A DNA stretch of 64,000 nucleotides from an uncultured Planctomycetales bacterium (GCA_964401335.1 CAYNYK010000002.1:67630-131629); one strand, 5' to 3'; shown: positions 4,623-63,997, numbered from the stretch's first letter. The notes: generated by a model from the sequence alone, not told the origin. Numbers and translations: made by a program.

Positions 4623-4632
4623 AAATCCTCCC

Positions 4633-4905
4633 TTAATCTCCGACGGATGGGGCGGGGGCCATTTGCGGAAGGCTTCGCCCGTCGGCCAATCCGAGACGCT
4701 CCGCCCGCTCCCGAATCATCCGCGGGCTGCGCAGGCGGGCCATCTCCATTTCCTGCTCCCAGATGCGCTGATGCAACTGTTGCTGCTGGAGGTGCAGCTT
4801 TTGAACCTGGCGGGCATGTTTGGCCTGGTCGGCACGCAGAATGACCACGGCGATACCGATGGTCGCCAGCGCCGATAAGACACCCACCATTCGTGGCATG
4901 GTCAT
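4633..4905 (-). CDS. FtsL-like small bitopic cell-division protein
   Basis: 90 aa with one N-terminal TM helix (VGVLSALATIGIAVVIL) followed by a coiled-coil-like Q/L-rich segment. Sits immediately upstream of ftsI. Its start overlaps the LysM gene stop in ATGA (4902-4905). Confidence 0.6.
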   Translation of the reverse strand: MTMPRMVGVLSALATIGIAVVILRADQAKHARQVQKLHLQQQQLHQRIWEQEMEMARLRSPRMIRERAERLGLADGRSLPQMAPAPSVGD

Positions 4906-6017: not shown

Positions 6018-6147
6018 GATAACCTCCGTGTCCAAGTACTAAGCGGCCGCCTTCCGGGACGGTCGACAGGGCCTATTGTATTCAACGCCACCCGTTGAAC
6101 AATCCCTCACTCCCATTTTTCGCCGGTAATTTTACGAACTCGATCTC

Positions 6148-20212: not shown

Positions 20213-20698
20213 TCATTTTTGAGCAGATCCCATTTTTTCGGCGAAGGCTAGATCATGGGAAAGAATAGGGGTGGATCCCGCCGACTTCAGCAGGATTCCG
20301 ACCTCGTGGTAACCCCGGCCGACATATCGGCAAAAACGCACCTGACCATATAAAAAAAGTGCGGGGTGGGTCGGGACATTAATCTCCACCTCCAACGGTT
20401 CATCAATCAAGAAACAACGACGCACCACAAGCCCCAGACCTCTTTGAGAAATATTTCTGGTCCGCCCGGGAAAAACAGTGATCGTGCCTTCGCCCGCCAA
20501 GAAAAAACGGACTTTACAGTCCACCCGAAACCGCTTACGTTTTTGATTCCGCTGAGCGGACGAATCCCGGTTCGCTTTCGCAAGATCATGCTGTTGGGAG
20601 CAAATATCCATATCATGAATAAGCTTGGCCAGGGTCGCTTCGTCACGAATAAACCGAGTTAGAATCGTATGATCGATCTGTGGTACTTGAACAGCCAT
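20213..20698 (-). CDS. PilZ-domain protein
   Basis: RKRFR...NISQRG. I prefer the ATG at 20698 (GGAGAAAGGGA RBS, MAVQVPQIDH...) to the track start at 20899. Paralogous to the next gene. Confidence 0.75.
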   Translation of the reverse strand: MAVQVPQIDHTILTRFIRDEATLAKLIHDMDICSQQHDLAKANRDSSAQRNQKRKRFRVDCKVRFFLAGEGTITVFPGRTRNISQRGLGLVVRRCFLIDEPLEVEINVPTHPALFLYGQVRFCRYVGRGYHEVGILLKSAGSTPILSHDLAFAEKMGSAQK

Positions 20699-20971
20699 TC
20701 CCTTTCTCCGTTTGATTAAACTGGCCCTTCTTCCATTTCGGCTTGCAAGTAAGCCCACATTACCTATGAAATCACGACTCATCCGGATACTCGACTCGCC
20801 GCCTCCAATCGGGCTTGCCAGGGGCGATAACTTTCGCGCACGAACATCAAGATCGGATTCACTCACGATATGGGCAGGCCGGCTCGAGATGCCGGACAAA
20901 TCAGTAGCGGCGAAAAGAATCGAGCATCGCGAAATGGACCCATAACCGAATGGCGAGGATTCGCGCCCGAA

Positions 20972-48017: not shown

Positions 48018-48352
48018 AAAAATTTTTAGAAATCCATAATTTATCAAGAAAACAATATCATCTATCTCATTATTTGACAATATTTTACGAACGTAACGAG
48101 AAATTATGGGACAAAACAGATCACCTTACGGTGTTCTTCCAAATGAGGCAGTAGCGTGTAGTCCGATAGCCGGAGAGGGCACCTGAACCAAATGGTAAAA
48201 ATACCAAACGAACCCACGAAATATCGAAAAATTCAGCATGACGTTAATCGGCAGGATACAAAACTCATGGCCGAACAACGGGGATACCAAACGTTCGATG
48301 ATTTCCCAAACCGGTTCCCGCATTCCGGGAGAGCTGACTTTTTAATTCCTAT

Positions 48353-48545
48353 CTCAGCGTCTCTGCGTCTCTGCGCGAGAATCCCCATCCTTTCAACTCT
48401 TTTCTCGGCGCCTCGGCGTCTCTGCGCGAGAACCCCCATCCTTTCAACTCTTTTCTCGGCGCCTCGGCGTCTCTGCGCGAGAATCCCCATCCTTTCAACT
48501 CTTTTCTCGGCGCCTCGGCGTCTCTGCGCGAGAACCCCCATCATT
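48353..48545. repeat. 51-bp tandem repeat, about 3.8 copies, downstream of the symporter gene
   Basis: The CTGCGCGAGA word recurs at 48371, 48422, 48473 and 48524, an exact 51-nt period. Copies alternate GAGAATCCCC and GAGAACCCCC. The shadow peptide is SAPRRLCAR(I/T)PILSTLF. Confidence 0.9.
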
Positions 48546-48554
48546 GCCGGTGAG

Positions 48555-50534
48555 CTATGCGGCCGTCGGAGGCTCTTCCGCATGGAGCAGGCCGTCATCG
48601 GTGGCATCACGTTTGCGGGTGGCGAGGATCCGGAACATATCGCGAAAGTCCCGCAGGCCGCCGACCAGGGCCCAGGCGAGCAAAGCGGCCGTCATCGCGA
48701 ACATCACCACGACATAAAATTTCCAGAACGACATCCACGATGCATCGGAAATGCCATGAGTCAGCATATATACCGATCCGATAACAAAGACGGCAAACCA
48801 GCACAGCGGCCAGGTCAGGTTGATGAAATAATAGATGAACTTGTCCGAGAGGCTATGTTCCTTACCGATCAGCAGCGACCGCAGACCGCTGGCCGCCCGT
48901 TTCTCGGTCACGGACAAATCATCCTGCACGGCATAGCGGCCGCGATGCAGAATCTTGTCGAGATTGGCCTCGGAACGTTTTCCCAGAAGGGAAACGAGTA
49001 TGTAAAGGGTGATCGCGGTGGCCATGGCGATGAAGGACCAGGTCTGTCCGTTCAACCAGGGAGCAACAACCTTGAGCCACTGCTTGGAGGTTCCATGTTG
49101 AAACAGGACTACGCCGGCAACAGAGAGGACCGACCCGGCAATCATGGCCGTCCAGGCGGCTGCGGTGGTGCCGCGTTTCCAATAGAGGCCGCCGATAATG
49201 ACCGACCCCGCCCCGCCGATATAGATGGTCCCGGTAACGGCGAAAAACATGAAAATATCCTGCTTGAGGGGGAAGAGCAGGCTGAAAACAAAGATAAACA
49301 AGGCCACGCCGCAGATCGAGCGTTTGAGCAGGCGGATGTGCCGCTCGGTGGACAACGGCTCCCGACAAAACGGCATGTAGATATCCTGAATAAAAATACT
49401 GCCCCAGGCATGCAGGTAGGTATTGTGGGTGGTGACAAAGCCAGCCAGGCCCACGGCGCACATCAGGCCCAGGGCGCCGTGCGGAAGAATACAGCGCAGA
49501 GCAACGGGTACACGCATCTGGCTGGCGATCTGTTCGCTGGGCATCGCCGCCAGAACCTGATCGGCCTGAGCCTGCAGGACGGCGAAATCCGGATGATGCA
49601 AAACAACGAAAGCACAAACCGCGCACAACAAGAAAGGCAGCCGAAGGATGGTGTTGCTGAACAGAACATAAAGCAGTTGACCCATCCAGCCTTCATGCGG
49701 GGTCTTGGCGGAGGTGTAGTAACCCTGGCTGCCCTGCCAGGCCATCTGCGCGTAAAACATCGTGAAACCGTAAACCAGAAAATACCATATATTAAATCCC
49801 TCCACTTTCGTGGAGTGCTTCGGATGAATCAGGGAGGCGCCCGCCGGAGCTTGGGACAGGCCGAAGGCAATCTGGTCCCAGCCGATGGCGTGGAACAAGG
49901 TCAGGCAGATGATCAGCAGAGCAATGCAGATGAATACGCCGTGAATAAAGTCGGAGACAATCACGGTGATCTGCCCGCCGATAAAGGTAAAAAAGAGCGA
50001 GGCGGCCAGCAGAAAAAACATGACGAGCGCGAAACTGGAAATCCAAACCGGCCCGAGAATGATGGCCGGCGGCAAGCCGCAAAACGAAACAATGAAGCGC
50101 GCCCCGATCGACGGGAAAATCCCGAAGTTGAAGATCCCCGCCCCAAAAGCCAGCATGCCCATAAAGATGCGAAACCGCCGGCTGTAGCGTATTTCATAGA
50201 ACTGGGCGACGGTCATGCAGCGGGTCTGGCGGAATCGATAAGTTACCCATCCGGTCACCCCCATGATCAGGAAGATGGGCATGTTCATGAAATCCCACCA
50301 GATGGCCACGAAACCGGCTTTATAGAAAAGCTCCCACCAGGCCAGGAAGGTGACGGTACCCAGATCGGAAATGGAGCGGGAGAAAGCGTAGACATAGCGG
50401 CCGGCACAGCGGTTGGCGACCATGAAATCGGCCACGCTGCGGACGTAACGACGGGCGTATACGGCCATGCCCGTAACCAAGGCCAGCAGGCCGATAACGA
50501 TGCCCCAATCAGCCGTGTTCAGAACCTGGAACAT
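48555..50534 (-). CDS. Sodium:solute symporter (SSF) family transporter
   Basis: 659 aa with about 14 TM helices. The N-terminus DWGIVIGLLALVTGMAVYARRYVRSVADFMVANR is typical of SSF transporters. Confidence 0.9.
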   Translation of the reverse strand: MFQVLNTADWGIVIGLLALVTGMAVYARRYVRSVADFMVANRCAGRYVYAFSRSISDLGTVTFLAWWELFYKAGFVAIWWDFMNMPIFLIMGVTGWVTYRFRQTRCMTVAQFYEIRYSRRFRIFMGMLAFGAGIFNFGIFPSIGARFIVSFCGLPPAIILGPVWISSFALVMFFLLAASLFFTFIGGQITVIVSDFIHGVFICIALLIICLTLFHAIGWDQIAFGLSQAPAGASLIHPKHSTKVEGFNIWYFLVYGFTMFYAQMAWQGSQGYYTSAKTPHEGWMGQLLYVLFSNTILRLPFLLCAVCAFVVLHHPDFAVLQAQADQVLAAMPSEQIASQMRVPVALRCILPHGALGLMCAVGLAGFVTTHNTYLHAWGSIFIQDIYMPFCREPLSTERHIRLLKRSICGVALFIFVFSLLFPLKQDIFMFFAVTGTIYIGGAGSVIIGGLYWKRGTTAAAWTAMIAGSVLSVAGVVLFQHGTSKQWLKVVAPWLNGQTWSFIAMATAITLYILVSLLGKRSEANLDKILHRGRYAVQDDLSVTEKRAASGLRSLLIGKEHSLSDKFIYYFINLTWPLCWFAVFVIGSVYMLTHGISDASWMSFWKFYVVVMFAMTAALLAWALVGGLRDFRDMFRILATRKRDATDDGLLHAEEPPTAA

Positions 50535-50692: not shown

Positions 50693-51835
50693 ATGAACTC
50701 AAAAGAACGGGCGCGGGCGGCCATTGCCCGCCAACCGGTGGATCAGGTTCCGCTCGGCTTCTATACCGTCGATCATGACACGATCGAGGCGGTCCTCGGG
50801 CGGCCGACCTTCGTGCGTAACAAGATCGCTCACCGCGTGGCCTTATGGGAAGGCCGCCGGGACGAACTCGCGGAAAGCCTGAAAAAGGACACCGTGGGTT
50901 TTTATCGCAAGATCGATTGCGCGGATATCATTCTGCCCAAAGAGGCCTGCTGGCTACCCCCGCGCGATTACGATCCCGACCCGCCGCGTAAAATCAACGA
51001 GAATTGCTGGGAAGACCGCCTCGGCCGGGTATGGCAGGCGGTTCCGGAAGTCAACGACATCACCTGCATTCATGATCCGAACATCGGCAAGAAAGTCTAC
51101 ACCCCGGCGGATTTCGAGGGACCGGTCGAAGACGAGCCTTTTGATCCATCCTGTTTCGAGGCGATGGATTACGTGATCGAGCAACTGGGACAGGATCGTT
51201 ATGTGGCCACTACGACGGGAGGGACGACGGCCCTGACGTTGATTGACGGGATGGAACACGGGTTGCTGATGTACGCGACACAGCCGGAAGTGATCCACGC
51301 GGCCAACCGCCGCTCGGTAATGGTACAGAATCGGCGCGACCCGGACTACATTCGGCCGGGGGCGGCCGGGGCCTTGATGGAAGAGGACATGGCCGGCTCG
51401 AACGGGCCATTGATCAGTCCGACGATGTTTCGGGAGTTGGGTTTCCCTTATCTGCGGGAGCGCATCGCCAACGTCAAAAAACACGTGGATCAGGTCATTT
51501 TTCACAACTGCGGCATGAATATTCCCCTGATGGACATGCTCATCGAGGCCGGGATCGACTGTTACCAGTCGCTGCAGACGACGGCCGGCATGGAAGTGGG
51601 CAAGCTCAAGGCCCTCTACGGTGACCGCCTGTGCTTCTGGGGCGGGGTGGCCTTGGAAGTTCTAATTAGAGGTACACCTGACGACGTGCGCAAGGAAGTA
51701 CGCCGGGCCATGGAGCGCGGCGCGCCCGGCGGCGGATTCATCCTCGGCCCCAGCCACTCCATCGCCAAGGGTACGCGCTACGACAATTTCATGGCCATGC
51801 TGGATGAATTCGTAGCATTGCGGGACAAGTTTTGA
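50693..51835 (+). CDS. Uroporphyrinogen-decarboxylase-family (URO-D/MtaA-like) protein
   Basis: 380 aa. The (beta/alpha)8 URO-D-like blocks include FHNCGMNIPLMDMLIEAGIDCYQSLQ and GGGFILGPSHSI. Confidence 0.85.
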   Translation: MNSKERARAAIARQPVDQVPLGFYTVDHDTIEAVLGRPTFVRNKIAHRVALWEGRRDELAESLKKDTVGFYRKIDCADIILPKEACWLPPRDYDPDPPRKINENCWEDRLGRVWQAVPEVNDITCIHDPNIGKKVYTPADFEGPVEDEPFDPSCFEAMDYVIEQLGQDRYVATTTGGTTALTLIDGMEHGLLMYATQPEVIHAANRRSVMVQNRRDPDYIRPGAAGALMEEDMAGSNGPLISPTMFRELGFPYLRERIANVKKHVDQVIFHNCGMNIPLMDMLIEAGIDCYQSLQTTAGMEVGKLKALYGDRLCFWGGVALEVLIRGTPDDVRKEVRRAMERGAPGGGFILGPSHSIAKGTRYDNFMAMLDEFVALRDKF

Positions 51836-51845
51836 GCCGGATCGT

Positions 51846-52622
51846 TCAACGCACCATGCGCGGCGCGCAGGTCAATGCATCCGGGGAAAACAGATCAATG
51901 CCCCCGTCACGCAGATAACGGGCCTGGTCGATGAGCTTCCGCATGTTCCCCAGCAACGGCTCGGTCAACAACGTATCGGCCGCGCGGGGATCGGATTCGC
52001 GCCTGCAGGTTCGACAAGGGACCGTCCCCCGGCCCGCGCAATGCGTGCAGACCGTCGCTCCGTTGGCGTGGCAATCAGGGCATGGGGTGATGGTGACGGA
52101 ACGCGCGGCGGGGTCACGACCGGCCTCGCGCGTGCGCAGAGCGCCACGGCCCTTGCAGGTCGGACAGTTGACGATGCCCGTCCCGCGACAGTGGCTGCAA
52201 TCGGCCAGTCCGGTATCCCCGCAGCTTCGACACAGAGTGAATTGCTCATCCGCGTTTCTCGATTTGGCCAACTCGTTCAGGGAAATACCCAGCGTGGATT
52301 CGGCCAGCCTCTCCACCGCCGGAACCTGCCGAACTTTCAGGATGGCCATGTGCGTCGCCGCTCGATTGCCCTCAAGGCTACTTTGCAGCGCCTGGATGAG
52401 CGCATCGAAAGCCGCCCGGCGGGTTTGCTGTTTGAGGAGGCGAAGTTCGGCCAGGCGGGTCATGGCCGCGGTATCGAGTGGATCCGCCAGCACGGTCCGG
52501 CTCAGATCGGCAACCTCATCGGCCGGGGCGGAGGCGGGCCGGCTGGCCGGCGCGGGCGCCGGGCAGGAACGCGGATCGCCGATCATTCCAAGAAACAGAA
52601 CCAGAATCATGACACGTCTCAT
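51846..52622 (-). CDS. Secreted protein with DnaJ-type CxxCxGxG zinc-finger repeats
   Basis: N-terminal hydrophobic signal (VMILVLFLGMIG). Motifs CRSCGDTG, CSHCRGTG, CPTCKGRG and CTHCAGRG, plus the partial motifs CPDCHANG and CRTCRRES. Start overlaps the upstream stop (ATGA). Confidence 0.7.
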   Translation of the reverse strand: MRRVMILVLFLGMIGDPRSCPAPAPASRPASAPADEVADLSRTVLADPLDTAAMTRLAELRLLKQQTRRAAFDALIQALQSSLEGNRAATHMAILKVRQVPAVERLAESTLGISLNELAKSRNADEQFTLCRSCGDTGLADCSHCRGTGIVNCPTCKGRGALRTREAGRDPAARSVTITPCPDCHANGATVCTHCAGRGTVPCRTCRRESDPRAADTLLTEPLLGNMRKLIDQARYLRDGGIDLFSPDALTCAPRMVR

Positions 52623-55294
52623 GACGAGGCAACCTCCTCATGATCATCGAGGCTTTGTCGGACGGACGGCGCGGCCGGCCTGGTGTGCAAATCATTGAGC
52701 ATTTCCCACAAGCCGAGATTGTAAAGCGCGCTTTCGCGCAATTCGTCGAGCACATGGACCGGCCTCGACAAGCGTCGGTCCTTTTCCATCCGGGCATCAA
52801 CCAGTCGGATCAGGTCGGAACCGGCGATTTGCTCGATCAGAAGTTCCAGCAAGGCGCCTTCGGTTTGCAGGGCGACGACCGCGCGTTGCAAAGCGGTTTC
52901 GCTGGCCGCGGTCCGCGCTTTCTTTTCAAGTTCGATGATATCCGCCCGGATCGCGAAATCCTTACCCAAGGGGTGCTCGCGGACCAGCCGACTGAGTTGA
53001 TGATTGACGCCGTCGAGGGCGTCCAGCAAATCACGCTCGAGGTCCGGGCCGACCGACGGGGCGAGGCGCGGCGCGGGCTGAACAAGCACGGCGTGACCTG
53101 ACGCCGTCCAGTGAAAAGACTCCAAAGCCTGAGCGCTCAAACGGACGCGTTGAACGGCGGCGGCGATCAATCGGGAAGGCAAATGGTCGTTTGGGTCCCA
53201 GACCGACGACGACGAGGCACTTCGCCCCACGGGCGAGGCAACCTGACGATAGTTCCAGCGAAGCACGCCCTGGTGTAGCTTTTCCTGCCACCACTGCACA
53301 CATTCCTGCCGCTCGCGGCGGGTATGGCGCAGACGGAGACGCACATCGGCCAGATTCATGGGCACATAAACATCGCTCTGGGCGATAAGGGCCTGGGAGA
53401 TCATGAAGGCGACTCGTGAGCTGGACTTGTCCAGAATTTCGACAAGCCGTCGCGGGATGTCCGAGTCGGTCATTTCGGACAGGGTACGGATGATCCGCGA
53501 ACAGGTGGACATATCGCGGCGACATCGATCGTCCAGTACGTCCAGCAGGGCTTGAACCGCCGCCGGAGTGTTCAGGACGCGCAGTTCCTCGATGGCTCGG
53601 TAACGAATCCCGGGCACCGGCGAGGAACAATCGGCCTTCAAGGTTTCCAGCCGTTTGATTTGAAAACTGGTTGGCGGCGCTTGCGCGGGTTGAGCCGATG
53701 ATTGGGTGGAGATACTGACCTCATCGGCCAGCAGGACCGGAGCGGAGGGGCGCTCCAGAAGATGTATCAATGCGGGGTCGCCGCCGTCCGTCTGCCCACA
53801 AAACTCGCGGGCCCGCACGGAACATGCCGACAAGGCCAGGACCGTATCGCCGAGCAAGGCTTCCATGGGAGCCCGGGGCGAAGCGAAAGAACGACGCAGA
53901 CGCCCCGCCAGACTCCCTTCGGGCCATGCTGAAGCTGCTTTCGTCACCGCAGGGACCGGCGGAGTCGAGGGTTGCGAGACGGGATTCTTCGGCAAATTCG
54001 GAACAGGGACTGCTTCGGTTACAGGGGGTGGGGCAAGGGCTAACGCGGGCGAGGGCGGCGCGGGGGCTGTCTCTGGTTGAGTGACATGGGTCACCTTGAC
54101 CGGGCCTGATATTGGCGGCGAAGGCGATTCGACTATCGGTGCCGGTGGATGGTCATGGATATCGGGTTTGGCTACGGATGCATCGTCACCGCGTCGGGCA
54201 AAGAAGAATAAGGAAAAGAGAACAACCGCGGCGGTTGGAATAGCAATATTCCAGAAGACCGAGGCCGACAGGAAGCGCCGGGGCCGAACGCGATCATCGC
54301 GTGTTTCCGATCTCTCTTCGATATCCGCCACGATATCGCTTGGGGTATCGAGGGCATCGGATGAAGAGTCGTTCAGCGCGATGGTTTCCGTGTCGGGAAC
54401 GGCGTGCCTGTCGATTCGTGCCGGGGTTTCCCGCTCCTGGTCGACGAAGCGAGCGACATGGTTGTTGATGAGTTCCGCCGCCAGACGATCGGAGAGGCCG
54501 TGCGAGGTCGCCAGAAAAATCAGGTCGGCTCGTTCCGACGGCATGGGGGCGCGGCCGGGAAGGCGGGCGCGCAGCAGTTGAACAAACCAGTTTTTCAGGA
54601 AAGACAAATGGTACACCCCACGACAAGCGTTCAGAGCGGCCAGACGCTGCTCGATCACAGCCGTCGCCTGCTCGGGGGGGATTTGCAGTTTAGCGGCAAG
54701 CATTAACAGTCGTTGCTCATCGCCGTGCAACAGCAGACCTTCATGAATGGTCAGGTCCACCACGTCGCCAAAAAACGCCGCCCCATCGATCGGCGATCTG
54801 GCAGCACCGCCATTGGGCAGAGGAATCCGGGATAATGCCTGTTCAATCTCGTTCGGGGGGACGCCGAGTTCGCCCAGCTTTTGTGCGAGGGGCGGGCGCT
54901 TCGATTCATCGAGCGTACCGTCGGGATTGAGGGCGGCCGCAATGGCGGCGCGGGCAACCTGCGTGATCCGCTGTCGCTCCTGCTCGGCCTTGAGGCGCGC
55001 CTTACGTTGCCGAATGATTTCATGCAAATAGGCATTGTAGGCCTCCCGCCGGCGCGGGTCGCGCAGCACCTCGGCGGCGGTCACCAACTGGTCCTGCTCG
55101 AATTTCATCACCAGCGGGATAAACTGCGGCCCGGGGATATTCTGGCGGAGCCGTTTGCGCCGCTCCTCCAAGGCCGCATCGACCACCTCGGCGGAGCAGT
55201 TCTTCGGATCGAGTCCGAGTAAATGATAATGGGTCGGTTCGGTGAACCGTTCGGGAATACCAAGCAGCTTGTAGAAGAAAGTCCACTCGATCAT
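52619..55294 (-). CDS. Large membrane protein with an N-terminal J-like domain lacking HPD
   Basis: From the ATG at 55294: MIEWTFFYKLLGIPE...HYHLLGLDPKNCSAEVVDAALEERRKRLRQNIPGP...AAEVLRDPRRREAYNAY. This has J-domain helices II and III but no HPD. One TM helix (VFWNIAIPTAAVVLFSLFFF). About 550 aa lie beyond the TM helix. Confidence 0.7.
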   Translation of the reverse strand: MIEWTFFYKLLGIPERFTEPTHYHLLGLDPKNCSAEVVDAALEERRKRLRQNIPGPQFIPLVMKFEQDQLVTAAEVLRDPRRREAYNAYLHEIIRQRKARLKAEQERQRITQVARAAIAAALNPDGTLDESKRPPLAQKLGELGVPPNEIEQALSRIPLPNGGAARSPIDGAAFFGDVVDLTIHEGLLLHGDEQRLLMLAAKLQIPPEQATAVIEQRLAALNACRGVYHLSFLKNWFVQLLRARLPGRAPMPSERADLIFLATSHGLSDRLAAELINNHVARFVDQERETPARIDRHAVPDTETIALNDSSSDALDTPSDIVADIEERSETRDDRVRPRRFLSASVFWNIAIPTAAVVLFSLFFFARRGDDASVAKPDIHDHPPAPIVESPSPPISGPVKVTHVTQPETAPAPPSPALALAPPPVTEAVPVPNLPKNPVSQPSTPPVPAVTKAASAWPEGSLAGRLRRSFASPRAPMEALLGDTVLALSACSVRAREFCGQTDGGDPALIHLLERPSAPVLLADEVSISTQSSAQPAQAPPTSFQIKRLETLKADCSSPVPGIRYRAIEELRVLNTPAAVQALLDVLDDRCRRDMSTCSRIIRTLSEMTDSDIPRRLVEILDKSSSRVAFMISQALIAQSDVYVPMNLADVRLRLRHTRRERQECVQWWQEKLHQGVLRWNYRQVASPVGRSASSSSVWDPNDHLPSRLIAAAVQRVRLSAQALESFHWTASGHAVLVQPAPRLAPSVGPDLERDLLDALDGVNHQLSRLVREHPLGKDFAIRADIIELEKKARTAASETALQRAVVALQTEGALLELLIEQIAGSDLIRLVDARMEKDRRLSRPVHVLDELRESALYNLGLWEMLNDLHTRPAAPSVRQSLDDHEEVASS

Positions 55295-57798
55295 GGCGAC
55301 GTTTCCTTGATCGGGGCTGACCTTGGGCCTTGAGTAACAGTCCATTCCCGATCGAGGGCATCCAATCGTTTTCGCCAATTCGCTGATTCAATCGTTGGGC
55401 AGCGGAGGCGCAGCAAATGCAATAGTTTTTGCGCGTGGTCAAGTCGGCCGGCAAGCTGATGACATCGGATCAGGTGATACTGGGCCTCGAACCATCCGTC
55501 GGTGTTTTCCTTGACCCCTTGGGCAAGGATGCGCCACTGATCCAGAGCCCGATCGTATTGGCCCAGGGCTTCATAACCGTAACCGAGGCCCCGTAGGACA
55601 TCGCCGGCCTTTTCCAGGGGCAGAGGGTCCGGCACTTGTCGGAGTAGCCATTCATATTGCGCGAGGGCCTCGCGATCACGTCCGAGGCGGCGGAGATTTT
55701 GGGCCAGACGGCGACGCAGGGCGATTTCCTGGTCGCGGTTCGCGGAAACGGAAGCCTGACCCGCGTCTTCGAGCAGCGCGGTATATATGCGTACCAACGG
55801 TTCGGCCAGTAGCCGCGCACTGGTTTCATTTCCTTGGGCGATTCGCCGGTCATATTGACGTTCGAGAACATCAGCCATCATCGCCAGATACGGGCGCGCG
55901 GCCGCTCGGCTTCCCGACCGGCCCAGCAGGGTATCCAAGTTTTTATTGGCTGACTCGCCACGGCCGTCCAGCCATTGCATCGTCATGGTCAAAATCGTTC
56001 GTTGATCGGCGGCGTAATCCGGGTCATGCAACATCTTGAGCAAGGTTTCGCTATTGTTGATCAAGGCCTGAATAGCGGGCATATCGGGCCGAGCCGGCTC
56101 GAGATAGTGGGCCGCGGTCCGCAGGGCGGCATCTACCATACTCCGGGCCTCGGCGTAAGCGTCAGCAGGCAGATCGGTCGTCGCTGCAAGTGTGTAACGC
56201 TTAATCGCGGCAGCCGAGCGATTCAACAGATCAATCAGCGGTTGCTCATTTTCATTTTTAGCCTGTTTTATTTGGTCGTCGACCTGACGCAGAGCGATCA
56301 CCGCCAGTGCATATTGCGCCCGGCGATAGATGGGTGAATCGGATCGGACCTGATTGAGCACCTGCTCGGCCTCACGATAGCGGCCGGCCTCAAAGAAAAG
56401 GTTGGCCCGTTCCCAGGCAAACCGGCCGACGATCGGCTGATTGGCGAATTGTTTCTCCGCGTAATCAAGGAAGGCAAGAAAGGCCTCGGGCGATAAAGCG
56501 GGTTCGCTTTTGAGGGCCTTGGTCCCGGCCTCGAAAGCGTAGGTCAACAGCGTTTCGGAACGTCGATCGGAAGCGTGATGGCGAAGGAAATCGTCGGCCG
56601 ACCGATGCGCCGCGAGCCATTGTTGAAGATTCCAGGCCGCCGCCGCCCGCAAGTAACGCAGATCAGCGGCCAGCGTATCGCTTGCCGGTTGTTGTTGCGC
56701 GAGAAGGTTAAGGCCGCTTTCCGCCTGAGTAAGCGCATCCGCATAGCGCCCTTCACCGAAAGCTTTTCGGGCGACCTCCAGACAACGCAAGCTCTCGTTG
56801 CCCGCCTGACCGCCGGCGGCACGGATGATTTCACGCTGCCAGGATTCACCGTAAGGTTGCACCATGGCCGCCACCCGATCCAATCGCTCCCGATACCGGG
56901 CATGATAGGGATTACTTTTTGGATCACCGGCCAGAGCGGCCAGACTACGTGCCCATTCGACGGCCATGCCCAACTCGACTTCATCCAAACGCCGTTCAGC
57001 CGGACGTTCGCCGAAATACCGCTCGGCGGCCTCATGTAATTCACGGTAGCGGCGCATACGCAAGAAAGTCCTTAACCGAAGATAAGTCATGCGCTTGAAG
57101 GTCGTTTCCGGTGTGTTGGCCGGCGCGGCGGGCTGCAAAAGTTCAATCACCTGCCCATCGCGTCCCAGTTCATAGTAGCATAGGGCTTGACCTAAAAAAC
57201 AATCGGCGAGCACGGGATGGTCCCGGTACCCGCCGGAGGTAAACCTCGTGAAACGCTCGACGGCCTGCTCGAAATAGGCTGATCGGTTTGCCTCGTCGGC
57301 AAGCAGCCCCAGGTTGTAGGACACCCAGGCCATCGCGTAATGAGCGCGGGACACATAGCCGCTGGCCTCCTGGTACTTCTTGTTTTTCTCAAGCGTTTCG
57401 CGGTTTTGACGTAGTTCCATCTGGGCGGCTTGGGCATCCGCCTCGGTCGCCAGACGCTGATAAACGGCCAACGCCTGTTCCAGATGACGGGCGGCCTCGG
57501 TGCGGCGGGCGACTTGATTTTCATCGCGCTGCCAGGCCATCAGGCGGATGCGCCCGCGGGTACGCTCGAGGTCCGCGGCAAGAAAATCGAGTTCCATCCG
57601 TTCGAGCTTTCGTCGTGCGGATTTGTACTGTTCCTCGGCCTCGGACAGCTTCTTTTCCGCCAGCTCTTCGGTGGGAGCGGCGACGGCTTCCTCGAGCAGT
57701 CGCCCGATCATCCCGACGGTCGTCTCCTCGGCAAGCGTGGAAAAGGCGAACCCAAAGGCCGCGAACCAGGACACAAGCATGATCGTCCGGACCATCAT
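55291..57798 (-). CDS. Secreted TPR-like repeat protein (835 aa)
   Basis: Signal peptide MMVRTIMLVSWFAAFGFAFSTLAEE, then helical-repeat composition throughout. ATGA overlaps at both ends. Confidence 0.75.
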   Translation of the reverse strand: MMVRTIMLVSWFAAFGFAFSTLAEETTVGMIGRLLEEAVAAPTEELAEKKLSEAEEQYKSARRKLERMELDFLAADLERTRGRIRLMAWQRDENQVARRTEAARHLEQALAVYQRLATEADAQAAQMELRQNRETLEKNKKYQEASGYVSRAHYAMAWVSYNLGLLADEANRSAYFEQAVERFTRFTSGGYRDHPVLADCFLGQALCYYELGRDGQVIELLQPAAPANTPETTFKRMTYLRLRTFLRMRRYRELHEAAERYFGERPAERRLDEVELGMAVEWARSLAALAGDPKSNPYHARYRERLDRVAAMVQPYGESWQREIIRAAGGQAGNESLRCLEVARKAFGEGRYADALTQAESGLNLLAQQQPASDTLAADLRYLRAAAAWNLQQWLAAHRSADDFLRHHASDRRSETLLTYAFEAGTKALKSEPALSPEAFLAFLDYAEKQFANQPIVGRFAWERANLFFEAGRYREAEQVLNQVRSDSPIYRRAQYALAVIALRQVDDQIKQAKNENEQPLIDLLNRSAAAIKRYTLAATTDLPADAYAEARSMVDAALRTAAHYLEPARPDMPAIQALINNSETLLKMLHDPDYAADQRTILTMTMQWLDGRGESANKNLDTLLGRSGSRAAARPYLAMMADVLERQYDRRIAQGNETSARLLAEPLVRIYTALLEDAGQASVSANRDQEIALRRRLAQNLRRLGRDREALAQYEWLLRQVPDPLPLEKAGDVLRGLGYGYEALGQYDRALDQWRILAQGVKENTDGWFEAQYHLIRCHQLAGRLDHAQKLLHLLRLRCPTIESANWRKRLDALDREWTVTQGPRSAPIKETSP

Positions 57799-58229
57799 GG
57801 CGCATTTCCGAAACCGCGGGCGGAAAACGCCGCCCGGCGCAGGTCGGCCTGATAACAGGTATCCAAGGCGGCCACCATGTAACGAAAACGTACGCCCCGC
57901 CGGCCCTCGATTATTACCGGCAGATCGGCAATCCGTCGTCGAGCTTCAAGACGTTCGCGGAGCTGGGCAAAGCTCGCGCAAGGCTGGCCGTCGCAGCTCA
58001 CCAACACGCCATCGCCGGCCGACTGCACGACGATGCGCACCGGCTCGAATTCCTCCACCGCCATGCGCGGCCCGCCCACGCGCGGCAACGGGCTCGGCAG
58101 GTTGCGCTCCGGGGCCTTGAACGCCGACGTACACATGAAAAAGATCAAGAGCAGAAAGACCACGTCGATCATGGAGGCCATGTTCAACGTCGGCTTGCCC
58201 ACCTCACGTTTTTGATGCGTCAACCGCAT
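57795..58229 (-). CDS. exbD: ExbD/TolR-family biopolymer transport protein
   Basis: PTLNMASMIDVVFLLLIFFM TM signature followed by a periplasmic domain. Confidence 0.85.
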   Translation of the reverse strand: MRLTHQKREVGKPTLNMASMIDVVFLLLIFFMCTSAFKAPERNLPSPLPRVGGPRMAVEEFEPVRIVVQSAGDGVLVSCDGQPCASFAQLRERLEARRRIADLPVIIEGRRGVRFRYMVAALDTCYQADLRRAAFSARGFGNAP

Positions 58230-58325
58230 GGTACTCTCTTATCGCTTGGCTACGACTCCTCATGGTCGTCGATCACCGGCAAGATCCGCCGTTGTGGGGT
58301 GCCACACCCCATTGCCGATTCGGCG

Positions 58326-58757
58326 TCAATCCACCCGCGCGTTTTCCTCCGCTTCCAATACGGCGATTTTGACGCGGTCGATCCCGCCGGCCGCGCACAC
58401 GTTCATGACCGGCCCGACCTTTTCCCAGGGCGTATCCCGATCCACCCGCAACAGGACGGACAGTTCGCCAAGGTTCGTCCGATCTTTTTCGGTGGCCAGA
58501 AGCCGCCGAAGCGTGGTCACGTTTTGATTATGTCCGTGGGCGATGATCCGTCCGTCGGGATGCACGTTGATCGTCAACTGGCGAACGGGGCCGGAGGCTT
58601 CCCCTCGGACGGCCTCGGGCAAGGTCAGCTTTTCGACCTCGACGCGGGAAATCTGCGAAACGGTCATAAAGAAAATAATGAGCAGAAATATCACGTCGAT
58701 CAACGGGGCCACGTTGATCTCGCAACCGTAGGAACGTATGACCTTGTGCAGACGCAT
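58326..58757 (-). CDS. exbD: ExbD/TolR-family biopolymer transport protein
   Basis: INVAPLIDVIFLLIIFFM signature. Second paralog. Confidence 0.85.
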   Translation of the reverse strand: MRLHKVIRSYGCEINVAPLIDVIFLLIIFFMTVSQISRVEVEKLTLPEAVRGEASGPVRQLTINVHPDGRIIAHGHNQNVTTLRRLLATEKDRTNLGELSVLLRVDRDTPWEKVGPVMNVCAAGGIDRVKIAVLEAEENARVD

Positions 58758-58770
58758 GGCGGTCTCCGGT

Positions 58771-59541
58771 TTACGCCGTCCCCTTGCGGAATCGTCCGGT
58801 CAGCTTCTCGACGATGACCTCGGCCTCGGCCACGTAGCCGTCGATCCGGTTACGAAAGAAAGACACAAAGAACATCGTGGGAATGGCCACCACCAGCCCC
58901 ATGCAGGTGGTCACCAGCGCCTCGGATATCCCCTGAGCAAGGTCGGACGGCCGGGCCATCCCCTCGGTCATCGAAATCTTGTTAAAGGAGCGGATCATCC
59001 CCGTCACCGTACCCAGCAGACCGAGCATCGGGGCGGTCGCGGCGATGAAGGAAAGATAATCCAATTTGCGATAGAGTTTGGACAATTGGCGTTCGCTCAC
59101 CTCCTGCATGGAATTCTGCATATCGAAGAAGCCGAACATCGAGCCGATCTGGTTGAGGCCTGCGCCAACCACCAAAGCCAGAAACGAACCGTCCTCGGCG
59201 CAATCCTGCTGGGCCTGGGAATAATCCTTTTTGTGCAGATGTTCCTCCAGCCGCTGGATCAGTTCCGTGGGGAGCAGTTCCTCGCGGCGAATGGAAATGA
59301 AATGCTCGACGATCAGGGCCACGGAGACCAGGGACATCAGGATGATGATGTAACCCACCACGCCGCCGTCATGAATCGTGCTCATCAGGGTGATCGACCG
59401 GACCTCGGCCGTTTGACTCGTCGCCCCGCTTTCAGGCTGAGCGCGGGCACCGGCCGCCACCACGTAGATCACCACCAGGCCGACGGCAAGCATGAACCAT
59501 AGTTTGAAATGACTGAACGGTTGTTGATACTCGGAGCGCAT
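58771..59541 (-). CDS. exbB: MotA/TolQ/ExbB proton-channel protein
   Basis: 256 aa. The C-terminal block IAATAPMLGLLGTVTGMIRSF...GISEALVTTCMGLVVAIP is typical of ExbB/TolQ. Confidence 0.88.
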   Translation of the reverse strand: MRSEYQQPFSHFKLWFMLAVGLVVIYVVAAGARAQPESGATSQTAEVRSITLMSTIHDGGVVGYIIILMSLVSVALIVEHFISIRREELLPTELIQRLEEHLHKKDYSQAQQDCAEDGSFLALVVGAGLNQIGSMFGFFDMQNSMQEVSERQLSKLYRKLDYLSFIAATAPMLGLLGTVTGMIRSFNKISMTEGMARPSDLAQGISEALVTTCMGLVVAIPTMFFVSFFRNRIDGYVAEAEVIVEKLTGRFRKGTA

Positions 59542-59565
59542 GGACGAAACTCCTGAAAAACAATT

Positions 59566-60687
59566 TTAACGGGGCCCACCTCGGCCGGGCGGAGCCAGTC
59601 CGGCGTCGGCCGGGGACACGAAACGGTAAATGCCACGATTTTCCTCGGCGATCCGCTTGAGTATGGGTTCACCGATATTTTCAAAAAAGGCGATGGTATG
59701 GACCACGACCCGGGCACCGGGATTGGCGGCCCGGATGACCTCGCAAGCACTTTCGTCGAAAAGCCCGTCGGACAGCAGCCAGATCGCATCGGGCTGGAGC
59801 GACAAAGCCAACAACATCGCGGAGCGCGGGTCCGTGCCGCCGGAGGGCAGGGCGCTCTGATTAACCCATTCGATCAGGTTGCGCTTGTTGGGCTCGGTGG
59901 CCTTGACGGGTTTGTCGCCGGGCATGGGTCGATGCTGGTCATTAAAAAAGATAATGAAAAACTTCTTTTCCCGATCGAGGGCGGTCAGCGAGCGGATCAA
60001 TTCATCAGTCGCCGCCCGTATCTTGTCGCCGGTCATGCTCCCGGAATAATCCACAACATAGACAAAGGTACTACCTCGGGCGGTAATGCCGAAGAAGCTG
60101 GCCGTCCCCCCGCCTTCTCCGCCGCCGCTGCCGGCAAACGCCGACCAGTCGGTCGTGGACTGAGCGGATGAGTCACCCATCATCAGATCAACGCCCAGCA
60201 GTTTTTCGCCGGCCGATGCCTCAAGAGAACCCAGACTGAGTTCGAGAATCGGCTCGGCCACGGCGGCTTGCCGATCATCGGCCAAAGCCAACTCCGGCCT
60301 TTCCGCCTGAAAACCGGAAAGATCGGCTCGGCCGGTCTCGATGTTCGTCCCCGGCGGCTCGATAACGATGCCCACTTCTTTCTCGCCGCCCCCCATGCCC
60401 AGACCGGAAAACCAGGTGGCTCCCGCAAACAAGGTCAGCAACAGAATATGAAAAGCCAAGGATGCGGACCAGCCAATGGTAGTGGCCACGCGATGCGGGC
60501 GTTCGGGGTACTCGATAGTGGCAAGGCCTTCGCCCGCCGCCGGTTGAATCGTTGATCCACAACCCGGGCATTTGACCGGCATACCGACAAATCGGTCGGC
60601 CAGCCGGATGGCCTTACCGCACTGTCGGCAGTGGCGGCGGAGTGGACGCGGCGGTTCGTTGCCGGTTGATTGAGGTTGGGCGGCCAT
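59566..60687 (-). CDS. Zinc-ribbon / single-TM / periplasmic von Willebrand factor A (vWA) domain protein
   Basis: CRQCGKAI...CPGCGS ribbon. TM helix GWSASLAFHILLLTLFAGATWF. vWA domain with MIDAS residues DYSGS, GGTD and LLSDG. ATG at 60687 preferred. Confidence 0.8.
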   Translation of the reverse strand: MAAQPQSTGNEPPRPLRRHCRQCGKAIRLADRFVGMPVKCPGCGSTIQPAAGEGLATIEYPERPHRVATTIGWSASLAFHILLLTLFAGATWFSGLGMGGGEKEVGIVIEPPGTNIETGRADLSGFQAERPELALADDRQAAVAEPILELSLGSLEASAGEKLLGVDLMMGDSSAQSTTDWSAFAGSGGGEGGGTASFFGITARGSTFVYVVDYSGSMTGDKIRAATDELIRSLTALDREKKFFIIFFNDQHRPMPGDKPVKATEPNKRNLIEWVNQSALPSGGTDPRSAMLLALSLQPDAIWLLSDGLFDESACEVIRAANPGARVVVHTIAFFENIGEPILKRIAEENRGIYRFVSPADAGLAPPGRGGPR

Positions 60688-61045
60688 GATGATATCCCCT
60701 ATCACCCAATGTATTTATCGACGGCACCGGATTTCGGCAAGTATTGACCTATATCTTATACCCCGCATCTTTCGAGTCATAGATATCCGGCCTATCCAAA
60801 CCGGCCTTTATGCGCCGGCGTCATTCGGACCGATTGTTTGAGGCGGCAGGCCGCGCAGTGCTGAGCTCAGGCAGGTTGGCCTGGAGTGATTTAACTTCCC
60901 TACGTCCATTATTATATCCTTCTCCTTGTTAAACTCAACAAACTTCATATCATTTCTCGCGGTGATTTGTCTCATGGAGTCACGGGAGCCGAGCGATTCA
61001 ACGGACCCCGGCGGAGGCGTGTTGGCCATAAGAAGGAGGAATACT

Positions 61046-61432
61046 GTGAAAATTTCGTTATCCAAAGTGGCGTGGTTCTCGTTACTATCCTTGGCCTTGC
61101 TGGCGGCAGGTTGCGCCCGCCCGCGCTATGTCCATGCCGTCTTTTTCAGCTTCAAGGAGGGTACGCCGCCCTGCGAAATGGATGCGCTGGCCGCCGACAG
61201 CATCGAGCACCTGTCGAAAATCCCCTCCGTGAGGAGGATCGAAAGTGGGCGGCGCGACGAGCGGGCCGTCCGGGATGTTAATGTGACCGACTATGATATC
61301 GGTTTGGTGGTCTACTTTGACGACAAGGCCGGCTACGACGAGTATGAAAAGCACCCCATCCACGAGGAGTATGTGCAAAAGTATCGGTCAAGCTGGGCCA
61401 AAGTACGCGTGTTTGATTTCGTGGCGAAGTAG
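61046..61432 (+). CDS. Dabb (stress-responsive alpha/beta-barrel) domain lipoprotein
   Basis: AGGAGG RBS, then GTG at 61046. Lipobox LLAAGC. YVHAVFFSFKEG...HLSKIPSVRRIESG...HPIHEEYV is the Dabb pattern. Confidence 0.8.
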   Translation: MKISLSKVAWFSLLSLALLAAGCARPRYVHAVFFSFKEGTPPCEMDALAADSIEHLSKIPSVRRIESGRRDERAVRDVNVTDYDIGLVVYFDDKAGYDEYEKHPIHEEYVQKYRSSWAKVRVFDFVAK

Positions 61433-61444: not shown

Positions 61445-63997
61445 CTACAGCGGATCGCCCTGACAGATAAGCGTAACCCGGGCCCGGACGGCGAGGTCGG
61501 TCGGCCCGTCGCAGGTAAAGATGATCGGGTTGGCGCCCGGTTGAACCTGCGGCGGATCACCTTGCGGCTGAATCTCCGCGACCAATTCGCCGGCCGCGTT
61601 GTACAGCTTGCAGTCCGTCGGCGAGGCGTATTCCAGATAGCCGCCGGTTTCCATCTCGACCGGGAAGGTGATTTTCTTTCCGCCAATGGTCAACGCGGGG
61701 TTCTTGATCTTGATCTTCACCAAGGGCATGGCCTTGATCGGGCTGAGGTAACAGGCCACTTGCCCATCCGTCGGCAGATTGTTGTACCAGAGCGAAAGCG
61801 TTTTCAGGTTCGCGTAATCGACATTCTCCCGGAGGCTGGCGTAGGGGCCGCCATAAGGCCATTGATAGTCGGCGTAGCGATCGCCCTCCATCTCGATGAG
61901 CTCGAAATAACGCCAACCGGTAAAATCCACGTTCACGTAATGGTCTCCGATGCCGCGGGTGGTGAACTCCTCCGGACTACGAACTTGCACGTTAAGCACC
62001 TCGCCGCGCCCGTCGCCGTGGACCCAGACACCCAAGGCTTGCTTTTCCTTAATGTTGACCAGCGGATCGAAGGTGAGGCCCGCCTTGGCCCAGGCCGCCG
62101 TGGGTTTCACCTTCGCTTCGTTGGCGGCGGTGAACAGGCCGCTGCCTGAACCCGTCTTGACCTGTTCGGTGCTGCGTTGCAGATCGCTGTTGACGCCCAG
62201 CACGTTTCCACGATCGGCGAAACGGGACGGTTCAGCAAAATCCGTGAGGACAATATTCGTTTCCGCGTCATAGGGGCCGGCCGAATAAAGGGCCTCGATG
62301 CGAATTTTAGGGGGTTGGGCGGCGTAAGTATTATTGATTGACCAAGCGTCACTCCAACCATCGATACCCTGGACCTTGTGCTTGATAACCTCGACAGGTC
62401 GCAAACGCCATGCGCCGTCGTCCTGCTGTTGCAGGGTAAATTCGCGTCTGGGCTCGGCCAGTTTGGCCTTGATCGAGGCGTCAAAATAATTCTTGTGACG
62501 AAGGGTCTCGTATTGACGCATGATCCCGGAAAGTCGCCGCACCGCGGCGTTTGTTTTGATCTTGGCCGGATCTACTCCCATGATCGACAAGCCGACATCC
62601 GTGCCGATGCACTTGCCGCACAGATATTCGATGTCATCGCTGAAAGTCGGCTCGTCCTGTATATTCTCGAAGGTCTTGAACGCCCACCAGCCCAGGTGAC
62701 CGGGCATGAACTGACGTTTCAGAGCGGCGTTGGCTTGGCAGTGCATATCGACGAAACGCTTGTGCCCGCGATTCGGATGGTCCCAGGCCCCCATGCGTGA
62801 GCGCACATACCACAGGTGATGATGGAAGGTGCTCATTTCGAAGACGGCCGGTTTTTTCAGCCGCTTGCAGATCTCGAAAACAAATTTGGAACCGTAATGC
62901 CAACCATTTTCCCCTCCGCCAACGATGTCTTCGCCATCGAGGGCGTCGAGGTAGATCATGTCGAATCCGCAGGTGTTGTAGGCCTCGGCCGTGCAGGCCG
63001 CCACTTCAGCGTACAAGGTTGAATCACCGTCAGGTACGAAGAGTCCGAAACACTCCTTGAGGTGATGGACCTTGGCCCCGGCGGCATGCGCGGCGGGCGT
63101 GGTGCCCCATGCCCCGCGCTGGCATTGGTTGAACGCATAGGGCGGGGTTTTCGATAGACCGCTGTAGGTAATCAATTCGTTATCAATTTGGACGGTCACG
63201 CTGTTGCGAATAAAGAAATCGGTCACCGTGGACATGTTCTCAGTGGATTCGAGCACCCGGACGGTGGCTTCCTTTTCGTCCAGCGGCAGTTCCAGAGTGA
63301 ACGTAGCGTCCTTGGCCAGTCGCGGGTCGGGCACGGGCGTGACCCATTTCGAGCGTTTGTCGATAAAGAAAGCGTAGGTGTGCAGACCGGCGGCAATGCC
63401 GGCAGCGTGCAGTCGATCGATCACCGCCCGCAGGCTGTCCAGCCCGCGCGGATAAGTCTTCGGGTTCGGCACAATGTCACCGAAGCGGAAGGATACGCCA
63501 CCGTGAAAATCGATCTGGTTGATACCCAGTTCCTTGGCCAGGCTTATCCATTCGTCTACGGTCTCCTCGGACATATCCCCAAAATTGAACAGATACGATC
63601 CGCGATTGATCGGCGCGTCGAGGGCCCAGGGCCCGCCGAGTTGCGTTTGCGGCAGTTCCGGCGCGGCCTCGATGCTTTCTTTCATCACCACCCGAAGCAT
63701 TTCCGAGGAGCAGGTAAGCAAAGCGACCTTCGCCCCACGAAAACCAAAACGTGGGTAGCAGAACGCCCGTAGCCGCTGACTTGGCGAAGGGATTTCATGG
63801 ACGTTGGTTTGCAGGTTGAGGGCCAGGGCACAGGCCGCGAATGATTCGTCCGGCGTTCCCTTGAGAGTCAGCGGAATATCGACCAGGGTGAAGCACTCGA
63901 CCTGCTCACCTTCAAGGGAAACCACCTCGACGGTGAAATAGCGTTTCTCCGCGACGGGCTTGAGGACGGCGACGGCCGGGGTATGATCGAATTCCAC
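61445..63997 (-). CDS. Large hypothetical protein, possibly glycoside-hydrolase-like (5' end may lie beyond the window)
   Basis: 850-aa ORF open to the window edge. The central segment GINQIDFHGGVSFRFGD...LHAAGIAAGLHTYAFF...MIYLDALDGED looks like a TIM-barrel glycosidase. I can assign no family. Confidence 0.7.
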   Translation of the reverse strand: MEFDHTPAVAVLKPVAEKRYFTVEVVSLEGEQVECFTLVDIPLTLKGTPDESFAACALALNLQTNVHEIPSPSQRLRAFCYPRFGFRGAKVALLTCSSEMLRVVMKESIEAAPELPQTQLGGPWALDAPINRGSYLFNFGDMSEETVDEWISLAKELGINQIDFHGGVSFRFGDIVPNPKTYPRGLDSLRAVIDRLHAAGIAAGLHTYAFFIDKRSKWVTPVPDPRLAKDATFTLELPLDEKEATVRVLESTENMSTVTDFFIRNSVTVQIDNELITYSGLSKTPPYAFNQCQRGAWGTTPAAHAAGAKVHHLKECFGLFVPDGDSTLYAEVAACTAEAYNTCGFDMIYLDALDGEDIVGGGENGWHYGSKFVFEICKRLKKPAVFEMSTFHHHLWYVRSRMGAWDHPNRGHKRFVDMHCQANAALKRQFMPGHLGWWAFKTFENIQDEPTFSDDIEYLCGKCIGTDVGLSIMGVDPAKIKTNAAVRRLSGIMRQYETLRHKNYFDASIKAKLAEPRREFTLQQQDDGAWRLRPVEVIKHKVQGIDGWSDAWSINNTYAAQPPKIRIEALYSAGPYDAETNIVLTDFAEPSRFADRGNVLGVNSDLQRSTEQVKTGSGSGLFTAANEAKVKPTAAWAKAGLTFDPLVNIKEKQALGVWVHGDGRGEVLNVQVRSPEEFTTRGIGDHYVNVDFTGWRYFELIEMEGDRYADYQWPYGGPYASLRENVDYANLKTLSLWYNNLPTDGQVACYLSPIKAMPLVKIKIKNPALTIGGKKITFPVEMETGGYLEYASPTDCKLYNAAGELVAEIQPQGDPPQVQPGANPIIFTCDGPTDLAVRARVTLICQGDPL

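Follow-up and report, generated by a model that had tools for sequence, protein, structure and literature searches.

A cluster of seven genes, here termed g1 to g7, was analysed in a 64,000-nucleotide stretch of DNA from an uncultured Planctomycetales bacterium (GCA_964401335.1, CAYNYK010000002.1:67630-131629; hereafter the window). MurE, encoded near the opposite end of the window, shares 80% identity with a protein labelled Phycisphaerales and approximately 60% with proteins labelled Phycisphaerae, which places the source among uncultured Phycisphaerae (Planctomycetota). The cluster probably encodes a TolQR/ExbBD-type motor that drives g1, a membrane protein with a periplasmic von Willebrand factor type A (vWA) domain, as its force transducer in place of TonB or TolA; the evidence for this is computational throughout. 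The vWA protein had been put forward as the energised element of a proton-motive-force motor in an earlier interpretation of the same DNA (the sequence-only reading), and such a role would agree with the S-x3-H motif and linker of g1, with the synteny of the locus and with the association between motif and motor described below. The seven co-directional open reading frames (ORFs) lie on the minus strand at positions 51846-60687:

59566..60687, minus strand: g1, 373-aa putative vWA-type TonB/TolA-like transducer (Pfam VWA_3, E-value 1.9e-11)
58771..59541, minus strand: g2, 256-aa TolQ/ExbB-like proton-channel subunit (Pfam MotA_ExbB, 1.2e-29)
58326..58757, minus strand: g3, 143-aa TolR/ExbD-like subunit 1, with transmembrane Asp21 (Pfam ExbD, 1.8e-22)
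57795..58229, minus strand: g4, 144-aa TolR/ExbD-like subunit 2, with transmembrane Asp22 (Pfam ExbD, 3e-20)
55291..57798, minus strand: g5, 835-aa secreted tetratricopeptide repeat (TPR)/helical-repeat protein (signal-like segment, weak Pfam TPR match)
52619..55294, minus strand: g6, 891-aa bitopic protein of an uncharacterised family (AlphaFold2 (AF2) model, profile searches)
51846..52622, minus strand: g7, 258-aa secreted Cys-rich protein (signal-like N-terminus, six CxxC units)

The genes are closely packed, with gaps of 24 nt between g1 and g2, 13 nt between g2 and g3 and 96 nt between g3 and g4, and with a 4-nt ATGA overlap shared by each of the pairs g4/g5, g5/g6 and g6/g7. A divergent Dabb gene (60926-61432, plus strand) flanks the block on its upstream side, and a convergent URO-D gene (50693-51835, plus strand) flanks it on the downstream side. 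Independent gene calls on identical metagenomic contigs yield the same seven products, and related contigs agree. The start codons of g1 (ATG at 60687) and g6 (ATG at 55294) are in accord with homologue alignments. The sequence-only reading had delimited the same seven minus-strand genes with the same coordinates, overlaps, gaps of less than 100 nt and choice of start codons for g1 and g6, all of which are borne out; its assignments of g2 to ExbB and of g3 and g4 to ExbD agree with the Pfam matches given above.

The transducer candidate g1 is composed of a cytoplasmic zinc ribbon, a single transmembrane helix, a linker and a vWA domain with a complete metal-ion-dependent adhesion site (MIDAS), a topology that had been read from the sequence and that agrees with Pfam, the AF2 model and the homologue alignment:

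60559..60630, minus strand: cytoplasmic zinc ribbon, C20-x2-C23 ... C40-x2-C43 (CxxC pairs; weak Pfam DZR match, 0.007)
60400..60492, minus strand: transmembrane helix with S76-x3-H80 (and F87, T91), an SHLS-type motif (homologue alignment)
60364..60378, minus strand: E104-V-G-I-V108, candidate motor box, that is, ExbD-binding strand (column counts)
59608..60105, minus strand: periplasmic vWA domain with complete MIDAS (Pfam, alignment, AF2, Foldseek)

The AF2 monomer model, which was built on 24 homologues, shows a two-hairpin zinc ribbon (residues 16-48, predicted local distance difference test (pLDDT) score of 90-95), a single long helix (residues 66-96), a disordered linker of approximately 95 residues (98-192, pLDDT below 50) and a vWA fold (195-360, pLDDT of ~95). 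Foldseek matches the modelled vWA fold to vWA domains at E-values down to 4.5e-13, with ITIH1 at ~6e-12 and BatB (Protein Data Bank (PDB) entry 3ibs) at 8e-9, and the fold also superposes on the MIDAS-type vWA domains of CaV alpha2delta and the anthrax-toxin receptor. The MIDAS residues D213-x-S215-x-S217, T285 and D307 are invariant in 24 homologues, all 77 homologues contain the DxSxS element, and the domain is directly preceded by a hairpin with invariant SFFG.

The helix of g1 (IGWSASLAFHILLLTLFAGATWF) contains no Asp. Its residues S76 and H80 are invariant in all 24 aligned homologues, and S-x3-H, which has the spacing of the SHLS motor-binding motif of TonB and TolA, is present in at least 72 of the 77 g1 homologues; the position seven residues after the His is F or L in 50 of these 72, and the position eleven residues after it is T or S in 43. 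The E-V-G-I-V segment follows 8-12 residues past the helix, with column counts, over 24 homologues, of 21 for E/D, 19 for V, 21 for G and 20 for I/V/L. It is a candidate motor box, located where TonB and TolA carry the strand that binds ExbD or TolR. The cytoplasmic part of the protein is less constant: no more than 29 of the 77 homologues have the zinc ribbon, and zf-HC2 (PF13490), an anti-sigma-type domain, appears in the precomputed Pfam list of two of them (P0018 and P0032), being N-terminal in P0032. The N-terminus is therefore a variable accessory rather than part of the core, and the zf-HC2 domains hint that some members of the g1 family couple to extracytoplasmic function (ECF) sigma signalling.

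Hydrophobic segments place an N-terminal signal-like segment and three transmembrane helices in g2. Among the NCBIfam models, those for the Tol motor rank above those for the Ton motor with g2-g4, although all scores fall far under the equivalog cut-offs (tolQ, 85.7 bits with a cut-off of 221; exbB, 58.8 with 206; tolR, 53.2 with 127; ExbD_1, 39.6 with 153). The genes g3 and g4 represent separate orthologous lineages and their order is fixed across loci, with g4 always second, which fits a heterodimer.

Gene neighbourhoods were compared in 80 genome loci retrieved by means of the vWA profile and in a separate metagenome scan seeded with g6. Within the 80 loci, all 12 vWA genes that adjoin a motor encode S-x3-H, as against 13 of the 58 that do not adjoin one (Fisher p = 4.9e-7). 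The complete g1-g7 set occurs in 13 loci, and the order vWA-ExbB-ExbD-ExbD-g5-g6-g7 is retained in loci with vWA homologues at 41-84% identity, except in L087, which ends after g5 and has an extra vWA paralogue upstream. Down to approximately 30% identity, the order g1-g2-g3-g4-g5 holds in Phycisphaerae, Isosphaeraceae, Planctomycetaceae and others. Distant planctomycetal loci (one of them binned as Anaerolineales) consist of one or two vWA genes followed by ExbB-ExbD-ExbD and then by a protein of 550-1036 aa that mostly has a signal-like start and gives TPR matches in four of eight cases; several of the distant vWA-motor loci have a TPR-like secreted protein of 800-1000 aa at the g5 position. 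In the g6-seeded scan, g5 directly precedes g6 in 25 of the 27 informative loci. The vWA gene, exbBD and a large TPR-like gene co-occur across Planctomycetota. The co-occurrence with exbBD implied by the sequence-only reading holds for the vWA gene in both near and distant motor loci, and for g6 and g7 in most near relatives and not in the distant loci.

Two further observations concern the number of such genes in a genome. Thirteen orphan vWA loci (L001, L003, L007, L011-L014 and others) combine S-x3-H with a MIDAS and have no motor in the fetched flanks; the proteins that they encode are possibly extra transducers that use a motor encoded elsewhere, like unlinked TonB paralogues. On the 69-kb contig Ga0272442_10000424, paralogous clusters consisting of g5-g6-g7 (L103) and g1-g7 (L105) are located approximately 1 kb apart, so that two such systems can coexist in a single genome.

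Proteins termed vWA force transducers, encoded beside tolQ-like, two tolR-like and TPR genes in the Planctomycetes-Verrucomicrobia-Chlamydiae (PVC) group, have been predicted previously by computational means (PMC12204202, Mol Biol Evol 2025), in the only paper on the g1-motor architecture found by a full-text literature search. That family extends over Proteobacteria, Planctomycetes, Verrucomicrobia, Bacteroidetes and Rhodothermaeota, and its members possess an SHLS-motif transmembrane helix with the His, a disordered motor-box region, a domain II of approximately 100 residues and a C-terminal vWA domain; in the AlphaFold3 models of that study, the transducer helix sits on the motor via the His. 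The protein g1 likewise has an SHLS-type helix with the His, a disordered domain II of approximately 100 residues and a vWA fold, and its cluster likewise comprises one TolQ-like, two heterologous TolR-like and one TPR gene. In these features the g1 locus agrees with the predicted family; where a motor box would lie, it has the conserved E-V-G-I-V segment, which the AF2 monomer model leaves unstructured. The zinc ribbon, the g6 family and the g7 zinc-finger protein are unmentioned in that study. The vWA gene follows the TPR and motor genes in the arrangement described there, and comes first here and in related planctomycetal loci; Tichowtungia has two transducers, and this locus has one. The TPH-vWA family, which is accompanied by tolQ only (PMC12204202, Fig. 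4c-d), was rejected as an assignment because the g1 helix lacks an Asp and two ExbD genes are present. Since the same model had been proposed earlier and independently, the novelty that the sequence-only reading implied for a vWA domain as transducer is reduced; new beyond PMC12204202 are the seven-gene version in approximately 13 loci, the g6 family and the g7 zinc-finger protein.

The TPR assignment of the secreted protein g5, made earlier from the sequence, is upheld by the weak Pfam TPR match and by the g5 family profile, which reaches 1e-11 against consensus TPR. The next protein, g6, spans the membrane once in its AF2 model:

55010-55294, minus strand: J-like N-terminus, within a cytoplasmic helical domain of aa 1-290 (confident in the AF2 model)
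54191-54262, minus strand: transmembrane helix, aa 345-368 (AF2 model)
53930-54190, minus strand: Pro-rich disordered linker, aa 369-455 (AF2 model)
52670-53917, minus strand: periplasmic all-helical HEAT/ARM-like repeats, aa 460-875 (AF2 model)

The linker contains 15 Pro in the 40 residues of aa 407-446. Searches of g6 against Pfam and NCBIfam returned no family above cut-off, with HEAT_2 as a weak match, and Foldseek with the full-length model and PDB profile searches gave only generic HEAT/ARM/alphaRep matches (Foldseek E-value of ~1e-2). A search of 1.84 billion (1.84e9) representatives gave 432 matches to g6 with E-values of 1e-3 or less, and 152 clusters with E-values of 1e-30 or less. 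In the family, LRQNIPGPQFIP is invariant, and conservation is much the strongest over the first 95 residues, which weakly resemble the helices of J-domain proteins and differ from them by an invariant NIPGPQFIP at the position of the His-Pro-Asp (HPD) motif in the family alignment. No Pfam DnaJ match was obtained, and the family profile reaches only E-values of 0.05-0.8 against J-domain fragments. Assignment of g6 as a J-domain (DnaJ/Hsp40) protein was rejected, HPD being absent and neither Pfam nor the PDB profile search supporting it. Of the earlier label 'J-like', a weak outline of the J helices stands, and the HPD motif and a Pfam DnaJ domain do not.

The last protein, g7, carries a recognisable domain behind its signal-like N-terminus:

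52005-52232, minus strand: DnaJ/BSD2-type zinc-finger domain, aa 131-206 (profile match)

All 12 Cys of its six CxxC units are invariant in nine homologues. The g7 profile matches BSD2 at 3.5e-6 and the Cys-rich domain of Escherichia coli DnaJ at 5e-4, and the single-sequence match to Pfam DnaJ_CXXCXGXG is weak and under cut-off. The six invariant CxxC(xGxG) units are shared with the zinc fingers of DnaJ and BSD2; unlike DnaJ proteins, g7 has a signal sequence, which makes it extracytoplasmic, and has neither a J domain nor the DnaJ C-terminal domains. The proposal that the operon links its motor to chaperone-like modules is weak, given a g6 J-like domain without HPD and the nature of g7 as a secreted zinc-finger protein. 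Because a Cys after the signal-like N-terminus is kept in most homologues, g7 may be a lipoprotein. In three homologues (P0090-92) the g7 domain is fused to the C-terminus of g6, and one of these fusions (P0091, 1056 aa) occupies the same operon position in L092 (10001-13171), which argues that g7 may act together with the periplasmic end of g6. The zinc-finger domain is also found fused to an N-terminal transglutaminase core (L089, 18858-20540). In L093, an FHA protein follows the g7 homologue.

These features can be arranged into a mechanism. A pentamer of g2 and a TolR-like heterodimer of g3 and g4, each of which keeps its transmembrane Asp, would form a 5:2 proton-driven motor in the inner membrane. 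The g1 helix would dock on the outside of the g2 pentamer via Ser76 and His80, with Phe87 and Thr91, as TonB does via S16, H20, L27 and S31, and the periplasmic domains of the TolR-like subunits would grip the E-V-G-I-V strand just past the helix. The disordered linker of approximately 95 residues would span the periplasm, and the vWA head would hold a partner through the MIDAS metal ion, in a kind of bond known to be load-bearing in vWA domains of the integrin type. The analysis demonstrates the domain content, the topology, the conservation of the motifs, the synteny and the gene fusions; from these we infer the docking, the pulling and the ligand. In this Phycisphaerae clade, the machine would have three more conserved components: g5 as a large periplasmic TPR scaffold, the bitopic g6 as a link between its cytoplasmic J-like/helical domain and its periplasmic HEAT-like repeats, and the secreted zinc-finger protein g7 as a factor working with the periplasmic end of g6.

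The physiological role can be assigned only tentatively. A Tol-like role in outer-membrane tethering or envelope maintenance is possible, and is favoured because the motor scores nearer to TolQ/TolR than to ExbB/ExbD, because TPR proteins accompany Tol systems, as one does here, and because Pal is reportedly missing from Planctomycetes, no pal being reported for them in the supplement of PMC12204202. Energised uptake or secretion is unlikely, and surface adhesion or gliding somewhat more so. Doubtful to about the same degree as this last role is a more far-reaching proposal, in which the seven genes would constitute a complete trans-envelope machine that functionally replaces Tol-Pal: the motor would pull a MIDAS catch-bond vWA head, the HPD-less J-like domain of g6 would couple the machine to the cytoplasm, and the HEAT-like repeats of g6 together with g7 would act on outer-membrane or wall clients as a holdase or thiol-active factor.

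Several points weigh against g1 as the driven element and against the mechanism built around it. In the g1 family, Phe or Leu occupies the third SHLS position and mostly Thr the fourth, which makes the motif similar to SHLS and not identical with it. In the AF2 monomer model, residues 104-108 are unstructured and form no motor-box strand. Hidden Markov models of g5, g6 and g7 found no matches in the more distant vWA-motor loci; being undetectable there, these three proteins would not be essential to the core mechanism. Two loci (L104 and L108) have g6 and g7 without an adjoining motor. The study of the vWA transducers itself states that no deletion phenotypes are available for them and that their function is not known. 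The Tol-like role is the weakest link of the argument, as it rests on the ranking of scores and on the reported absence of Pal.

An improbable alternative is that the motor belongs to a divergent but ordinary Ton or Tol system with its TonB or TolA encoded elsewhere, the vWA, TPR, g6 and g7 genes being merely co-transcribed with it, for example as a Bat-like module. In other bacteria, tonB often lies apart from exbBD, and the window covers no more than 64 kb of the genome. Within that span, TonB_C (PF03544) was detected neither in the seven proteins at E<=0.1 nor in 30 other large ORFs at E<=1e-4, and Pfam found no TolA, TolB or Pal/OmpA domain and no Plug or TonB_dep_Rec domain in either set; the 30 other ORFs each have 200 aa or more, and five of them have no Pfam match at all. 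The earlier statement that the window contains no TonB_C-like protein and no TonB-dependent receptor is supported, as regards these domains, by the Pfam and NCBIfam searches of the cluster and the Pfam scans of the 30 ORFs. With the Ton system, the cluster shares the MotA_ExbB and ExbD families, a bitopic partner with S-x3-H, a periplasm-spanning linker and the transmembrane Asp of the ExbD-like subunits, and it differs in having no TonB_C, a g1 linker that is not Pro-rich, no TonB-dependent transporter among the scanned ORFs and ExbB/ExbD equivalog scores for g2-g4 far under the cut-offs. Likeness to Tol-Pal lies in the best scores of g2-g4, which are to the tolQ and tolR models, in a periplasmic TPR partner like CpoB and in the SHLS-type helix; here, by contrast, the C-terminal domain of TolA, the β-propeller of TolB and Pal (an OmpA-like lipoprotein) are missing, the TPR protein g5 has 835 aa compared with ~260 aa in CpoB, and the tol models remain under their cut-offs.

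The Bat part of this alternative draws on the resemblance of the g1 vWA fold to BatB and on the membrane-anchored vWA and TPR proteins that the Bat operons of Bacteroidota and spirochaetes also encode. Those operons lack a TolQR/ExbBD motor, however, and a helix with the S-x3-H context is missing from BatA and BatB. A Bat/aerotolerance operon was rejected as an assignment, since neither a MoxR AAA+ ATPase nor DUF58 is present in the cluster or in homologous loci. A match to a Bat or Tol-Pal variant, raised as a possibility in the sequence-only reading, was not found, with MoxR, DUF58, TolA, TolB and Pal all missing from the cluster. The invariant S-x3-H of g1 and the motor-adjacency statistics would be hard to explain without docking, and the gene order is kept across deep divergence.

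Slightly more improbable is that the motor energises g6, with g1 as an accessory, either an adhesin or a regulator anchored in the membrane. The layout of g6 is indeed TolA/TonB-like, with a transmembrane helix, approximately 85 Pro-rich disordered residues and a large periplasmic helical domain, and it revises the earlier claim that no Pro-rich TonB-like protein is present, although g6 has no TonB_C. Although the motor cluster is the neighbour of g6 in 25 of the 27 informative loci, the g6 helix lacks a His and its sequence is not conserved. It is missing from L087 and from all more distant vWA-motor loci, in which the S-x3-H vWA gene is always present, and g6 and g7 are also found alone. An anti-phage defence system of the Zorya type, with a MotAB-like motor and effectors, is very improbable and was rejected: PADLOC gives a weak ZorA match to g2 (E-value of 0.0014), which reflects the shared MotA/ExbB fold, and no other significant match, g2 has 256 aa without the long ZorA tail, its partners are of the ExbD/TolR and not the MotB/ZorB type, and the cluster has housekeeping flanking genes and a synteny that is stable across genera.

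If the motor does drive g1, vWA/MIDAS heads would join TonB and TolA as a third kind of force transducer in the periplasm. The 5:2 proton motors (MotAB, ExbBD, TolQR, GldLM and ZorAB) are a general means of delivering energy to the outer envelope, and the tools that they drive form an open catalogue. The locus defines a seven-gene module that includes two uncharacterised families (g6 and g7) in the clade with the most elaborate system. To our knowledge, Planctomycetota lack FtsZ. If the module does replace Tol-Pal, g6 and g7 would represent a new class of motor-associated trans-membrane adaptor and would offer a handle on outer-membrane attachment during division in planctomycetes without FtsZ and Pal; a role in envelope maintenance would more generally bear on how Planctomycetota, which reportedly have no Pal, manage their outer membrane. 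The invariant S-x3-H and the association of motif with motor (p = 4.9e-7) provide an independent, quantitative sequence test of the prediction made in PMC12204202.

Upstream of the cluster, one candidate regulatory element was identified:

60911..60938, minus strand: candidate promoter, sigma-70-like TTGAGT-16-TATAAT, approximately 220 nt upstream of g1

This pair of hexamers is a possible promoter of the operon; in the promoter and terminator scan of the region, sigma-70-like sites were no commoner than in shuffled sequences. Rfam and tRNA scans of the whole window gave zero matches. A large ORF of at least 850 aa, which may continue beyond the end of the window, occupies 61445-63997 and has no Pfam match; only the loci of the closest relatives, L081 and L084, keep a 951-aa equivalent of it on the upstream side of the cluster, where the Dabb gene is conserved as well.

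Elsewhere in the window, a tandem repeat at 48352-48542 (51-nt unit, 3.7 copies, 95% identity) lies just downstream of the stop codon of a minus-strand SSF transporter gene (48555-50534) and gives rise to spurious repetitive ORFs on both strands. Adjoining tandem arrays at 25204-25432, of 5.8 copies of a 27-nt unit and 2.6 copies of a 36-nt unit, have the common core CGGCGAGACGCCGGCGCCACAC and are located inside an RnfC-like ORF (24761-26404), between the RnfC_N and FMN-binding domains; either repeats may have been inserted into a coding sequence, or the ORF may be mis-called. Near the gene of an FHA-fused T2SSE/PilB-type secretion ATPase (22514-24235, plus strand), two minus-strand genes (18974-19981 and 20213-20899) encode PilZ-domain proteins. 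At 1165-7077 on the minus strand, a partial dcw cluster encodes a MurE ligase, an FtsI-type transpeptidase penicillin-binding protein, a LysM-domain protein and MraW/RsmH, and these are genes of peptidoglycan synthesis in a planctomycete.

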